Source: a virus
Taxonomy: Duplodnaviria > Heunggongvirae > Uroviricota > Caudoviricetes
Length of the DNA: 28,682 nt
Direction: 5' to 3' (one strand)
IMG/VR virus record: IMGVR_UViG_2671180357_000002
Location: 1-28,682 of that record
The translations under genes and the position numbers were made by a program. Shown here one piece after another: positions 3,917-17,554 of the stretch; within the stretch, counting starts at the first letter, position 1, and each line of letters opens with the position of its first letter. The notes beneath the pieces are model-generated. The model searched no databases, had not been told where the DNA came from, and worked only from the letters and a program-made list of their open reading frames with translations.

Positions 3917-4465
3917 ATGAGCAATCTTCCGTTAGAGCGTTTTAACGTCAAAAGCCATGCCGACTTTCCTTTCAAATTTGTAATGAGAGGTTATGCAGAG
4001 GAAGCAGTAGGCCAGATTATCATTGACAAAGGCATTGTTAAGTTTGAAGGGGATTATGATGAATCCGCGAAAACATTCATAGACTTCGTTGCTAAACGTT
4101 GGAGCGAGCAATGGAGAGACCAGGAAAAACGTGCTCGTGAATTTGATACATTCATGTCTGAAATTGATACAGCAAAAACGGCTCTGGCTGCGGGTACTCC
4201 GTTAGATTTGGAGTCTCTGTTTAAAGGTGAAATGGCCTCTGCGATGTTCGCAACCATGTTTCCCGGTGAGTTTGTTCGTAGCGGGCCAGAAACTACCACC
4301 TGCCTGATCAACCTGTTCTGGATGGTCATATCGAGATGGTCATTAACAGCCATGAGAAAGGCTGGGCCGCAATCGTTCCCTGCAAAATTACATACAAGTT
4401 GGCGAAAGAAGTTAAGGAGCTTCGAAAAGACAGTGCCGAATCGGAGTCTACCAAAGCCGCAATAA
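3917..4465 (+). CDS. Hypothetical protein, possibly frameshifted (true C-terminus may continue in the 4282-4545 frame)
   Basis: 182 aa ORF whose last ~50 residues are low-complexity R/K/S/P-rich, while the overlapping frame open from 4282 to 4545 reads protein-like (HEKGWAAIVPCKITYKLAKEVKELRKD...). Confidence 0.45.
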   Translation: MSNLPLERFNVKSHADFPFKFVMRGYAEEAVGQIIIDKGIVKFEGDYDESAKTFIDFVAKRWSEQWRDQEKRAREFDTFMSEIDTAKTALAAGTPLDLESLFKGEMASAMFATMFPGEFVRSGPETTTCLINLFWMVISRWSLTAMRKAGPQSFPAKLHTSWRKKLRSFEKTVPNRSLPKPQ

Positions 4466-4575
4466 ACACCCTTGTTCGCATGGGGTTCACATGGGACGGC
4501 GGAGCCTACTGGCAAGCACCTCAACCCATTTTATCCGGCAATTAGGCGCTACAAATCCCTCTGCATGAATAAATA

Positions 4576-4634: not shown

Positions 4635-5057
4635 AAGCAGCACTTAGCAGTGCAACAGAAACAGATCCTACGCATCAAAACTTTGTGGCGTTTCGTATGG
4701 AGTTCACACCAGCGGTGGCGCTGGCACTACTGGATGAAATTAAGCGTCTGGAGGACACAAATATTGATGCCATGTGACGAATTGCAGAGGTGAGAGGCTG
4801 GAGTGCCTGCCGCGCGGCTATGCTTCAGAACCAAGACAGTGACAACACAGTGACAATTAAGGTTGGTTGGATAAGCTGTAGCGACCGGCTGTCAGAAATT
4901 GGCGAACGAAACTGGAGAACAAGTTTTCCTTTGCTGGTTACGTGTGAGATTGGCGTTATCCCTGCTTACTACGGCTTTGTAAGCCCTGTTAATAGTTAGC
5001 ATCTTATTAACATCTTTTTTTAAGAGACAGAGTTCAAAAACATGTTGCTCCAGCATA

Positions 5058-5077
5058 TACTGTGTACATATACAGTA
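5058..5077 (+). promoter_or_regulatory. LexA (SOS) box TACTGTGTACATATACAGTA
   Basis: Matches the CTGT-N8-ACAG LexA operator consensus; lies 17-36 bp upstream of the umuD'-like start. Confidence 0.8.
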
Positions 5078-5093
5078 TTAAGGGGCGAGTATT

Positions 5094-5483
5094 ATGGGCT
5101 TCCCATCTCCTGCGGCGGATTATGCTGAAAGCCGCATTTCTCTTGATCAGCAAATAATCAGGCATCCTTCAGCGACCTACTTCATGAGGGCGGCTGACAG
5201 CCATCACCGTGAGGGAATATTGCAGGGGGCATTGCTGGTGGTCGATTCCTCACTCACTCCTGTTGATGGTTCTCTTCTTGTATGTGCTATTGATGGGGAA
5301 TATCGCGTAAAACGATACAGGAAGTATCCGCGTCAGCATCTGGAGGATTTAAGAACCAGCAAGAAGGAAGCATTGCCAAAGGATGACGATGGATGCACTG
5401 GCAGTACTGCCGTGTTTGGCGTGATCACTCACATCATCAACGACGCAAGAAGTGGCGAATTTGATGATTGTCCTGTGATGTAG
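5094..5483 (+). CDS. umuD: UmuD'-like protein (S24 peptidase-family accessory subunit of translesion polymerase), encoded already lacking the N-terminal arm
   Basis: [30 protein letters not shown]... aligns by eye with E. coli UmuD from Gly25 onward ([29 protein letters not shown]); conserved Ser (ADSH) and Lys (RVKR) positions retained. Confidence 0.85.
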   Translation: [129 protein letters not shown]

Positions 5484-5488
5484 ATAGA

Positions 5489-5512
5489 AAGCCCTCATTT
5501 GTATGAGGGCTT
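5489..5512. terminator. Bidirectional hairpin AAGCCCTCA-tttgta-TGAGGGCTT between convergent genes
   Basis: Perfect 9-bp stem located between the umuD'-like stop (5483) and the minus-strand gene stop (5528). Confidence 0.6.
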
Positions 5513-5527
5513 CTAGGTAAACACAAA

Positions 5528-6271
5528 TCACTGCATGTTGCCGAATTTTTTGTTAAGACTTTTTCGTATTGTCTCTATGGTTTTCTCCCTATCTGAATAT
5601 AGCTCGCTAACTACATAGTCCATAATCTCAAAAGCGCCTTCGATATCTTTGTCCCGAACTTCATCAAACGTATGGCTGCCTGCGTTCCCCAAGAACTTTA
5701 TCGCCAAAAGATTTTGGGCGAGTTTGCTGCCCTCTTCCGGGATTTTTTCGATACGATGGTGCAATGGGATTGTCTTACCTTTATCATTTTGCGTAGGTAT
5801 ACCCATAGAGGTAAGGATATTTTCTACAGCGATTCTGATTAGGTTTGCAGCGGCACCTTGCTGCATTAAAAAAATGGAAAAAGCAGCCTTCAAGGGGCCA
5901 CTTACTTCATCCGGGCAGTTCTCTGGAATTTGAAAAACATTCAAGGAAGGAACAAAGCAAAGAGGTTTGTACCATTGATAATATTCGTCCACCGCTTCCT
6001 CTGGTCGATATTCTCTGTCCCATCCGGCGTTTCCTATGCACGCAACCGCTTCGCCACATTTTGCTCGAGAACATTTGGCCATACAGCTGAAATAGGACTG
6101 AGACATATCGTAATCAAACCAATCTTCATTTTGTGCTTTCCTGGTATCTAAAGACTCCTCTTCAACAAAACTATCTTGCATGATTTCCAGAGTCTTTTGT
6201 CCGCAGACCGGACAAGGCCAGTCCACATGTTTATCGCGGTAAAATTGATGGGAAATTTTATGAATAGCCAT
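5528..6271 (-). CDS. Zn-ribbon protein with a DUF4145-like C-terminal domain (candidate defence or abortive-infection protein)
   Basis: 247 aa. N-terminal Cys clusters CPVCG and CMAKCSRAKCGEAVAC; C-terminal LLAIKFLGNAGSHTFDEV...DYVVSELYS resembles the R-x-GN-x-x-H signature I associate with DUF4145. SD GGAG 9 nt upstream of the ATG. Confidence 0.6.
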   Translation of the reverse strand: MAIHKISHQFYRDKHVDWPCPVCGQKTLEIMQDSFVEEESLDTRKAQNEDWFDYDMSQSYFSCMAKCSRAKCGEAVACIGNAGWDREYRPEEAVDEYYQWYKPLCFVPSLNVFQIPENCPDEVSGPLKAAFSIFLMQQGAAANLIRIAVENILTSMGIPTQNDKGKTIPLHHRIEKIPEEGSKLAQNLLAIKFLGNAGSHTFDEVRDKDIEGAFEIMDYVVSELYSDREKTIETIRKSLNKKFGNMQ

Positions 6272-6829: not shown

Positions 6830-7015
6830 ATGCTTAAAGAGGATTCATATCTTTTAAAGACGCTTGAAATGCGTGGCGTTGAACCTACAGTGAAAAACGC
6901 TCACGATATCTACCTTCAGTTTTCACCGGAACTGAAACGGCTCATAAATAAATATGGAGTGAATGACTCCGGCGTCAAAGCCATGATAGATGATGAATTA
7001 GACCATCTCACCTAA
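6830..7015 (+). CDS. Hypothetical small protein (61 aa)
   Basis: ATG preceded by GGAG at 6821-6824; same strand and operon as the preceding gene. Confidence 0.5.
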   Translation: MLKEDSYLLKTLEMRGVEPTVKNAHDIYLQFSPELKRLINKYGVNDSGVKAMIDDELDHLT

Positions 7016-7353
7016 ATAAACCGTTGACATTGGCGGTCACAAATTGATTCTTTTCTATAAGAATCCGTTGATCGCCACTATTCCCCTTCTATACATTCAA
7101 TCACATCCTTAAATATCAACAGGTTATAGTTGTTTATACCAACAAGAAAACAACTAAATAACAGATCAACGAAACGTCAATGCTTTCCCCCGATTTGGTC
7201 TAAAAAATTGACGTTTTCACACATCACTTCTTATACCCGCAATCCTACGCAGCAGATAGCGCCACAGCGTTCAATTCTCACTACAGACGGACATACACAC
7301 CACCAATAAAAATACACGCCCAAAATCGCTCCCGCTGCGTTACATAACCATAT

Positions 7354-7397
7354 AAACAATTTGTTTTCAGGAATAACAAAACAACTAAATAACACAT
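7354..7397 (+). promoter_or_regulatory. Cassette-family leader (AAACAATTTGTTTT ... AACAAAACAACTAAATAACAC) with no convincing ORF downstream
   Basis: Same palindrome as other cassettes; downstream 7398-8510 encodes only low-complexity ORFs. Confidence 0.4.
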
Positions 7398-7415
7398 ATG
7401 CCATTCCCCAAAACA

Positions 7416-7507
7416 ACCCACCTCTTCCTGTCAGGCTACCGAAAAGACCCACCTCATTGCCCCAGGCTACAGACCACCCACCTAATATCCCCAGGCAACC
7501 GAGAACG
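7416..7507 (+). repeat. Three tandem ~30-bp direct repeats (ACCCACCT-N10-CAGGCWACMG), iteron-like
   Basis: Units begin at 7416, 7447 and 7476; a paralogous triple repeat lies at 11409-11496. Confidence 0.6.
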
Positions 7508-7533
7508 CGGCTCGCACGCGCAAACCCCGATAC

Positions 7534-7826
7534 GTCATTACCCAATACACGGAGAAGAACAGCCAGAACGAAACCCCGGACAAACCCAGACAAGAACAGG
7601 AGCCGTCACAATCTCGTTTACCCACCATTACCCCGAAAGAGAGCGCAAATTCCTGAATAGCAGGGAACGCCATTACTTCATATGCGGAGAACAACTAAAG
7701 CGCCCTACTGCCATTACCCACACTTCCATCAATTCACGTAAACGAAGAGAAAAGCGCACCTGCCATTATTCAATACACGGAGAAGAACACTCCCCAAAAC
7801 GACGAGAACAACCCAGAAAAGAACCA
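7534..7826 (+). repeat. Two ~65-bp direct repeats (7534-7600 and 7761-7826) plus dispersed GCCATTAY motifs in a CA-rich tract
   Basis: Both copies share CATTAYYCAATACACGGAGAAGAACA; the plus strand is strongly C+A rich across 7400-7900. Confidence 0.5.
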
Positions 7827-8064
7827 CCTCAAGAACAATGAAACCACATACGCCGGTAGAAAGAACAAACCACCCATTTCACCCACAGGAATAGTCGCCG
7901 TATTGAGCGTTATCAGAGAGAAGGTTTATGCCCACATAAGAGAGAAAATTTGTGGGAGGTATAAGTGGGAAGGGAAGGAGGGGTATCGCCACTTTCTTCG
8001 TATAAATTCAAGCCATAGTTTTCATCCCCCGTAACGTCCCTTTCCACCCCTTCGGTCAGCCTTC

Positions 8065-8260
8065 GGGCCATCCAGGGAAAAGGCCATGTCCCTTTTCAGG
8101 AACGGGAGCGTCGCCGCAGGGAAAAGGCTGGAGGTTTTCAGGGAAACGGTGGGAATCCCGCTGTACGAACCGGGAAAAGGCTGGCTGCCGGTCGGGAAAC
8201 GGGTACATCCCGGTACAGAGTGAGGGACGACTGCGGGAGCGGTGCGGGAAATCTTCGGGA
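8065..8260 (+). repeat. Array of at least six (C/G)GGGAAA(A/C)GG motifs at 20-30 bp spacing; begins with GGGCCATCCAG
   Basis: Motifs at ~8073, 8117, 8139, 8171, 8193 and 8243; a related module lies at 12106-12298. Confidence 0.55.
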
Positions 8261-8522
8261 GTGCGCCTTACTCTTCACTCGCCTGAAAATCGCGGGGGAG
8301 TGTCATTCCCTCTCGTGCAGCTACTGGACTCCAGTCTGCCAGACCATCATCGGGTCTCAAGCGATTTCAGTAGGTTTTCGGGGAGAAGAAAATTCTGCCC
8401 ACCAGCCCTGCGGCGCGCGTAGAGCAGAATATCGTAAATACTGGTTCCCGTGTCGTTCACGGATATTCACTGCCCAGCCTGGCTTTCACGACATAAAATC
8501 CTTTTTCGCCTTTGTCTTATTG

Positions 8523-8581
8523 CGATAATAACACCAACAAGTAAACAACATGTTTAGACGTTATATAAACGAAGTGAGGAT
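8523..8581 (+). promoter_or_regulatory. Cassette promoter/leader (-10 GATAAT 8523-8528, palindrome AAACAACATGTTTA 8543-8556, RBS GTGAGGA)
   Basis: Variant of the conserved cassette; palindrome core AACATGTT. Confidence 0.5.
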
Positions 8582-8587
8582 GAAGAG

Positions 8588-8806
8588 ATGATTAAGATGC
8601 CTGTGACGGTTGAGGTGTGGGGCGTGGATTCTCTGGCTGAGTGTCTGGATGCAGTGGGGCCGGAGTTGTACCGCAAGTTGTGGTCGTTCGTCCCGGCAGA
8701 AGGGGAATCGCCCAAAGGGAAGGATATCTGGCACCTGCTTAGTGAAGATGAAAAGCGGGAGCTGGTGGACGCGGTACACAGCGAGTTCCCGGACGACGAA
8801 GATTAA
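8588..8806 (+). CDS. Hypothetical small acidic early protein (72 aa)
   Basis: ATG 8588 after GTGAGGA; ~17 D+E vs ~7 K+R; ends in PDDED. Confidence 0.6.
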   Translation: MIKMPVTVEVWGVDSLAECLDAVGPELYRKLWSFVPAEGESPKGKDIWHLLSEDEKRELVDAVHSEFPDDED

Positions 8807-8919
8807 GAGTGAGACCACCAGCACGGTGGCTTTTGTCGCTATTAACCTCCGGGGCAGCGCAGCACCGTAACGATATACTTTGTGGCCGTTTTCTTGCTGG
8901 TATTGTTTACGCAATTCAG

Positions 8920-8938
8920 AAAACAACATGTTTAAGGA
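8920..8938 (+). promoter_or_regulatory. Cassette leader palindrome AAAACAACATGTTTA + RBS AAGGA
   Basis: Same variant palindrome as at 8543-8556, directly upstream of ATG 8946. Confidence 0.45.
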
Positions 8939-8945
8939 TTGCTTT

Positions 8946-16855: not shown

Positions 16856-17554
16856 ATGTATTGTATCAAAAATATGGGTGTGAAAATTACGATTCTACAG
16901 GTGGAAGTCGCGAACCTGCGTCCGAACCCCTGGAATACCAACTCCGTTGGGGCGCAAAACTTCGAAAAACTGAAAGGTTCCATCGAAAAGTTGGGCTTTT
17001 TTAAGCCAATTCTGGCGCGAGAGCTGGACGGCGGCATTTTTGAAATTCTCGGTGGCGAACATCGCTGGCGTGCCGCGATGGAGCAGGGCATTTCAACGGT
17101 TCCCGTCATCTCCGTGGGCAAAATTAACGACCTGGTGGCCAAACAGATGTCCCTCGTCGACAACGAGCGCTACGGCGAAGACGATCAGGTCGCTTTGCAG
17201 CGCTTAATCGAAGAAATCCAGTCTGAAATCGACTACCGGTTGTCCGATATCGCCCCGTATGACGACGAAATGGCGGCAACGCTCGCCAAAGCATCCGTTA
17301 TCGATCTTGAAGCGCTGGAAGCGCTCTCCCGCGGCGATGACGAGCCGATCGGTGAGGACAAACGCGAGAAAATCGAGCGAGTCGGTGCTGAACACCAGAC
17401 GATGCGCTTCAAAGTGACGTTCGATGCGTCAGATCGCGTCGCCGATACCATCAAAACCATCATCAAAGAGCAGGGAATCAATACCGGTAACGAAATGGAG
17501 AACGCCGGGGAAGCCTTGGTGTGGCTGGTCGACTACTACAAGGAGCGTATGTAA
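16856..17554 (+). CDS. ParB/Srx-fold (ParB N-terminal nuclease-like domain) protein 1
   Basis: LRPNPWN ... LKGSIEKLGFFKPILAR ... ILGGEHRWRAA match the ParB N-domain signature; start could be ATG 16874. Confidence 0.8.
   Translation: MYCIKNMGVKITILQVEVANLRPNPWNTNSVGAQNFEKLKGSIEKLGFFKPILARELDGGIFEILGGEHRWRAAMEQGISTVPVISVGKINDLVAKQMSLVDNERYGEDDQVALQRLIEEIQSEIDYRLSDIAPYDDEMAATLAKASVIDLEALEALSRGDDEPIGEDKREKIERVGAEHQTMRFKVTFDASDRVADTIKTIIKEQGINTGNEMENAGEALVWLVDYYKERM

Follow-up and report, generated by a model that had tools for sequence, protein, structure and literature searches.

The window, by which we mean the whole stretch of 28,682 nucleotides of DNA analysed here, carries a short gene, humD, whose product is a homologue of UmuD' already in its cut form, together with a compact control region upstream and, downstream, a hairpin and a convergent gene encoding a DUF4145 protein (Table 1). 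In E. coli, UmuD is converted to UmuD' by RecA*-stimulated self-cleavage at Cys24-Gly25, and it was immediately after this cleavage site that the original prediction had placed the start of the encoded protein.

Table 1. Coordinates of the features at the humD locus (positions are those of the window)
Feature	Position	Strand	Remarks
Regulatory segment, 109 bp	4985-5093	+	Promoter, LexA box, and ribosome-binding site; travels with humD in SSU5-type elements
Predicted sigma-70 promoter	5033-5061	+	-35 TTCAAA at 5033-5038, 17-nt spacer, -10 TATACT at 5056-5061
LexA (SOS) box TACTGTGTACATATACAGTA	5058-5077		Overlaps the predicted -10 hexamer; ends 16 nt before the ATG
Shine-Dalgarno-like AAGGGG	5080-5085	+	8 nt before the ATG, read from the sequence
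humD CDS	5094-5483	+	129 aa, pre-truncated UmuD' homologue with S24 peptidase fold
Conserved acidic C-terminal tail, aa 119-129	5448-5480	+	Ends EFDDCPVM; not in UmuD
Hairpin	5485-5515		Between the convergent humD and DUF4145 genes; dG -18.5 kcal/mol, z -4.4
DUF4145 gene	5528-6271	-	247 aa, convergent to humD, Pfam E 8e-15

According to the list of open reading frames, humD opens with an ATG at 5094 and closes with a TAG stop codon at 5481-5483, and an in-frame TAA at 5079-5081, five codons upstream of the ATG, excludes a longer N-terminus. Gly2 of the window HumD aligned with Gly25 of E. coli UmuD, being residue 1 of UmuD' in the match to structure 1umu_A (E 1.7e-23) and residue 25 of the full-length protein in 8gmt_B; the UmuD' structures 1umu and 1i4v both matched HumD unambiguously, at E 1e-23, and residues 25-139 of MG1655 UmuD matched the window in the same register at 42% identity (tblastn). 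The predicted start just past the cleavage site was thus borne out.

Pfam Peptidase_S24 (PF00717) was detected on HumD at 38.4 bits, against a cut-off of 23.3, and the Ser/Lys dyad is kept in the alignment (S36 and K73, equivalent to S60 and K97 of UmuD). The motif around the catalytic Ser, GDSM, is degraded to A-DSH, with a one-residue deletion, and the self-cleavage site (Ala-Gly or Cys-Gly) that serves as a criterion for Peptidase S24 is absent: HumD starts at the Gly of that site, so nothing is left to cleave, and although HumD has the S24 fold, it is no self-processing member of the family. Loss of catalytic residues on alignment with UmuD and P1 HumD had been named at the outset as an outcome that would count against the assignment; no such loss was found. 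Because a pre-cut protein needs no self-cleavage, however, loss of these residues would not decide its identity, and in the sister proteins of N15, phiKO2, HK140, and yong1 the Ser of the dyad is replaced. The window protein is identical to RefSeq WP_053292510.1 ('S24 family peptidase') of E. coli plasmid pGS04EC-1, and a PADLOC scan of HumD gave no match.

Compared with HumD of phage P1 (P1_gp103, YP_006569.1), the window protein is identical at 116 of 129 residues (90%), with no gaps (E 8e-90), and the two coding sequences share 85% nucleotide identity. The P1 protein had been put forward as a comparable homologue; judged by this identity, the relation is closer than that, the window gene being an orthologue of P1 HumD, and the locus is an ordinary, already catalogued humD copy, known and annotated in public records. 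The P1 RefSeq record states that HumD 'functionally complements E. coli UmuD''. A passage in PMC7092418, with reference to McLenigan et al. 1999, presents P1 HumD as a shorter form of UmuD that is already activated, and one in PMC9603915, referring to the same work, describes humD as a LexA-regulated SOS gene. In a CRISPRi screen, P1 humD was non-essential for lytic growth (PMC10695390), which tells against a clear-cut selective advantage.

Upstream of the gene, the perfect CTGT-N8-ACAG box lies exactly where the original prediction had put it, with CTGT at 5060-5063 and ACAG at 5072-5075 inside TACTGTGTACATATACAGTA; the stretch 5040-5100 reads ...ccagcatataCTGTgtacatatACAGtattaaggggcgagtattATGggc. 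A bare CTGT-N8-ACAG match was rejected as evidence, being expected 0.4 times per window and found at least once in 31 of 100 shuffles, and because this is not significant, it was replaced by a test of the full 20-mer and by conservation across loci. The LexA-type 20-mer agrees with the enterobacterial consensus TACTG(TA)5CAGTA at 18 of 20 positions (two mismatches) and is the sole site in the window within three mismatches of that consensus; none of 100 shuffles gave one. The box of E. coli umuDC, TACTGTATATAAAAACAGTA, lies 19 nt before the ATG.

The overlap with the promoter also agrees with the consensus scan, in which the first four bases of the box are covered by the predicted -10 hexamer TATACT. 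This promoter matches the consensus at 9 of 12 positions, a grade at which the scan gave two sites against 1.6 expected from shuffles, and its -35 and -10 hexamers are kept in most SSU5-type upstream variants; relatives have AAGAGG at the position of the window AAGGGG. A high-quality CTGT-N8-ACAG operator overlapping the predicted promoter, one criterion for counting a gene in the SOS regulon, is found here. From these features, we infer that LexA would bind at 5058-5077 and control the window humD, a view backed by the box in all 80 related loci (below) and by the sites annotated in phiKO2 and in P1, the record of which gives a 'LexA binding site in the regulatory region of lxr and humD', 19 nt before the humD ATG.

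Conservation of humD and its operator across loci

The related set comprised 80 IMG/VR loci encoding proteins 90-98% identical to the window HumD. The 129-codon reading frame is intact in every one of them (80/80), with 19 distinct proteins among the set, and the CTGT-N8-ACAG box is likewise found in 80/80, with 18-21 nt between its end and the ATG. Among the 80 loci, the 60-nt upstream sequence exists in 30 distinct versions, and the flanks fall into at least five families that are little alike outside the LexA box. Further afield, a LexA box also precedes the homologues in N15, BTP1, Hafnia phage yong1, phiKO2, and HK140, as well as the full-length umuDC-like operon of phage ENT39118 and E. 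coli umuDC. The dN/dS ratio computed between the window humD and P1 humD is 0.06. The gene is under purifying selection, and the conserved reading frame and operator, taken with this ratio, indicate that gene and operator alike are under selection and that the locus is no relic.

These data bear directly on a reading in which the locus is the decaying remnant of a umuDC operon that has lost umuC altogether, along with the 5' end of umuD, leaving the LexA box as a functionless leftover. The missing N-terminal 24 codons and the missing umuC would suit such a remnant, as would the degradation of GDSM to ADSH with its one-residue deletion, yet decay is hard to reconcile with so low a dN/dS against P1, or with frames of equal length in all 80 loci and their 19 distinct proteins. 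In a wider sample, made up of the best 150 representatives clustered at 50% identity, the M-G-F-P-S-P start is moreover kept in 42, and operator, ribosome-binding site, and start codon are kept across unrelated contexts. The remnant reading is contradicted by these conservation data to the point of being scarcely credible, and we treat it as in effect refuted. The sample also included representatives 250-300 aa long in which two UmuD-like S24 domains stand in tandem, and the query matched each such protein as two stretches. This architecture is unusual for the family, and these proteins are unrelated to the window locus.

The same comparisons address whether the box mainly serves a divergent gene on the minus strand, with the regulation of humD incidental. 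Precedents exist in that the P1 annotation assigns its site to lxr as well as to humD and that the phiKO2 site lies between the divergent genes gp22 (DinI-like) and gp23. At the window locus, however, the minus-strand ORF at 4892-5056 is broken by stops in 7/7 SSU5-type relatives examined, so that no divergent gene is present; a consensus scan found no minus-strand promoter in 4700-5700, the window holds no Lxr homologue, and the distance from box to humD ATG stays fixed at 18-21 nt whatever lies upstream. We consider service to a divergent gene very improbable and take humD to be the probable target of the operator.

Backbone of the element and its cargo

The original prediction had seen in the gene a hint of P1-like phage-plasmid ancestry, of which the phage-plasmid part stands and the P1-like part does not, the backbone being of SSU5 type instead. 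Within its first 25 kb, the window aligns over 48-75% with the SSU5-type phages CMS-2020a, PhiR41_1, Cyrano, and SSU5, and SSU5-type relatives from Klebsiella align with the window as well. It also aligns with non-mobilisable IncFIB plasmids of E. coli, 106-117 kb in size, among whose genes are those for terminase, portal, capsid, and tail, along with dnaE, a DnaB-like helicase gene, and repA. The nearest complete plasmid, pTB212 (NZ_CP033252.1), covers 98% of the window's first 25 kb at 98% identity, and 627 plasmid records match the humD region. Judging from these alignments, the element is an SSU5-like phage-plasmid of E. coli.

A P1 (Punavirus) backbone was rejected, as P1-type records match only humD and the type I restriction-modification genes at about 330-2023. 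Near humD, nucleotide similarity to P1 begins at the ATG and gives out shortly before the stop codon, the LexA box also being common to the two, and no homologues of Lxr, Hot, Phd, or Doc were found in the window. At the syntenic position in SSU5 itself, a humD homologue is absent and other cargo is found, after the DUF4942 methyltransferase gene.

The contexts in which humD occurs include hot-humD-phd-doc and lxr-humD-phd-doc in P1-type elements and, in the window, a methyltransferase region, humD, and the convergent DUF4145 gene. Similarity to other SSU5-type humD loci runs from 4985 up to the ATG at 84-91% identity, and this left boundary, 109 nt before the ATG, recurs in two further sequence comparisons. 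Given this 109-nt boundary and the several contexts, humD with its control region behaves as a compact cargo module.

On the downstream side, the hairpin folds better than all of 200 shuffles (0/200 fold as well), although it is without a canonical U-tract and was not flagged by the terminator scan; putative terminators are annotated in N15 and phiKO2 at the equivalent position after their homologues, and we regard the hairpin as a probable bidirectional terminator. The DUF4145 protein beyond it has a weak PADLOC match (E 3.9e-5) to the single-gene anti-phage defence protein PD-T7-4, and its linkage to humD is confined to a subset of SSU5-type plasmids.

Several other parts of the element were recorded alongside. 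The type I restriction-modification genes at 330-2023 (hsdM/hsdS, with a 520-aa ORF at 391-1953 on the minus strand) are 95-97% identical to those of the P1-like vB_EcoM-673R5 and phi456 and of Salmonella phage SJ1, and form a second module common to SSU5-like and P1-like elements. Between the DUF4942 methyltransferase gene and humD (3917-4545 and 4790-4999), the gene structure is unlike that of pGS04EC-1, with a 182-aa ORF in the window against CDSs of 234 aa and 126 aa in the plasmid. Within the same interval, 4901-4984 shares 90.5% identity with a portion of one hypothetical gene in the lambdoid phage HK140, which also has a humD-like gene, about 2 kb from that hypothetical gene. These stretches look like a patchwork of recombined cargo.

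Further along, at 7000-8940, lies a region of which about 1.6-1.9 kb is without an annotated CDS in close relatives. Over its first 900 bp, the plus strand has a strong A/C skew (GC skew of -0.31 to -0.43 and AT skew of +0.43 to +0.44 at 7300-7900), and the region holds several families of degenerate direct repeats, e.g., AAAACAACTAAATAAC and CATTACCCAATACACGGAGAAGAACA. Rfam and tRNA scans of the window found nothing, 7000-8940 being included in the Rfam scan. Outside the window, pTB212 has a single further strong LexA box, TACTGTATTTATAAACAGTA at 17241-17260 (two mismatches), with a site-specific integrase gene 29 nt downstream of it and a YafO-family toxin gene on its upstream side.

The partner of HumD and its C-terminal tail

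As predicted, no umuC partner accompanies the gene. A tblastn search with MG1655 UmuC found no UmuC-like sequence in the window (best E 0.71), the complete plasmid pTB212 contains no umuC either (best E 0.15 with the same query), and the 3-kb flanks of humD in the 80 loci gave no match to umuC. With no umuC borne by the element, any polymerase partner must be the host's, as is reported for P1, whose HumD is cited as acting together with host UmuC.

We put at about 85% the probability of a reading in which humD is repressed by LexA and released by the SOS response, and HumD joins host UmuC to give Pol V-like translesion synthesis without the wait for UmuD cleavage. In an undamaged lysogen, host LexA sitting on 5058-5077 would occlude the -10 region and keep humD off. 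Upon DNA damage, LexA would be cleaved and humD transcribed, and HumD dimers would then assemble with host-encoded UmuC into a Pol V-like translesion polymerase. The slow processing of UmuD to UmuD' would be skipped, and lesion bypass or SOS mutagenesis might thus set in earlier or reach a higher level for as long as the element resides in a damaged host. The orthology with P1 HumD and the lack of an element-borne umuC are shown by the sequences; partnership with UmuC in this host and a benefit to the element are inferred.

The protein nevertheless has one feature that UmuD' does not, the tail at its C-terminus. The sequence (R)SGEFDDCPV[MIL], or a close variant of it, occurs in all six of the pre-truncated phage homologues that were aligned, and those with the tail include P1, N15, phiKO2, HK140, and yong1; in the alignment it is found neither in E. 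coli UmuD nor in the full-length protein of ENT39118. Within the wider sample, 8 of 16 complete pre-truncated representatives carry an acidic tail of the E-F-D-[DE]-x-P type, versus 0 of 49 complete arm-bearing ones, counts that are not independent events, as the eight tail-bearing representatives probably belong to one lineage. In the literature that was searched, nothing on the tail was found. Because UmuD lacks it, HumD is not just a UmuD' and may have an additional or a different partner.

The tail invites one specific comparison, namely with the C-peptide of SSB, DFDDDIPF (PMC3936761), to which it bears a loose and short resemblance, with the Pro out of register by one position. On that resemblance, the tail could be a short linear motif mimicking the SSB tip, by which HumD would dock on, or compete for, the SSB-binding pockets of host replication and repair proteins. 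We hold such mimicry to be quite unlikely; if true, it would set HumD apart from host UmuD' by an additional activity and would account for truncation and tail occurring together.

A broader alternative is that the main role of HumD is to modulate the SOS and RecA machinery of the host, not to serve as a polymerase subunit. It could do so by binding RecA*, by forming heterodimers with uncleaved host UmuD, or by acting through its tail on proteins that bind the SSB C-terminus, so that prophage induction or replication would be tuned in damaged cells. Several observations are in keeping with this: few segments of the pre-truncated clade are as well conserved as E-F-D-[DE]-x-P with the one to three residues that follow it, mostly hydrophobic, at the extreme C-terminus, and none of the 49 arm-bearing representatives has this tail, the tail has its loose likeness to DFDDDIPF, humD is always an orphan without umuC, and SOS or replication accessory genes often adjoin it (hot and lxr in P1-type elements, a dinI homologue in phiKO2 and HK140). 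The likeness to the SSB tip is short, however, with its Pro one position off, and half of the complete pre-truncated representatives (8/16) are without the tail. Furthermore, P1 HumD reportedly replaces UmuD' in mutagenesis, according to the P1 record and the passage in PMC7092418, and that role would be sufficient. We therefore judge a mainly modulatory role unlikely and favour partnership of HumD with host UmuC.

By itself, the finding matters little, and only in the tail might the locus offer anything new. What the finding adds is confirmation that SSU5-like phage-plasmids of E. coli, which are common in poultry and livestock isolates, also carry the SOS-controlled, ready-activated UmuD' module known from P1. 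By analogy with P1, such elements may raise or accelerate damage-induced mutagenesis of their hosts, e.g., upon quinolone exposure. Together, the 109 bp of regulatory DNA and the CDS make a clear case of a self-contained cargo gene under SOS control that unrelated temperate elements exchange.

Comparison with known UmuD and UmuD'-like systems

The window HumD shares its S24 fold with E. coli UmuD/UmuD', the accessory subunit of Pol V (1umu, 1i4v, and 1ay9), and has the equivalents of Ser60 and Lys97; E. coli umuDC likewise has a LexA box of like type at a similar distance from its ATG. The differences are that the window protein is without the N-terminal arm of 24 residues, and therefore without a RecA*-dependent activation step and the functions borne by the arm, that no umuC is cotranscribed with its gene, and that it has a four-residue insertion (aa 100-103) and the 11-residue acidic C-terminal extension.

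Nearer to the window protein are N15 gp26, phiKO2 gp23, and HK140 gp28 (65-72% identity), which have the same pre-truncated M-G-F-P-S-P start and a tail of EFDD-x-P plus two residues, and which, as in the window, are orphans without umuC. A LexA box lies 16 nt before the ATG in N15, is annotated in phiKO2, and stands ahead of the preceding small gene in HK140. These three differ from the window in their catalytic Ser, which is replaced by Thr whereas the window retains it, and in their setting, being carried by linear plasmid-prophages or a lambdoid phage, with tail-fibre, partition, or dinI genes adjoining. In the column of UmuD Ser60, the window and P1 HumD have Ser and the homologue of Hafnia phage yong1 has Tyr, with Arg in place of Lys97; such Ser replacements in pre-cut homologues fit relaxed selection on the self-cleavage chemistry.

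Closest among these systems is P1. Its surroundings differ, P1 humD lying in the order hot-lxr-humD-phd-doc, whereas the window gene lies between a DUF4942 methyltransferase region and the convergent DUF4145 gene on an SSU5-like backbone; in pTB212, phd-doc is about 50 kb from humD. Outside the box, the promoter regions of the two are unrelated in sequence, and the spacer within the box is GTACATAT in the window versus ATAAATGA in P1. In the gene and its immediate control, the likeness is nonetheless close: a protein of 129 aa with the M-G-F-P-S-P start at the equivalent of UmuD Gly25, the same C-terminal tail, and the Ser/Lys dyad, encoded on an element without umuC and preceded by a LexA box just upstream, 19 nt before the ATG in P1 and 16 nt in the window.
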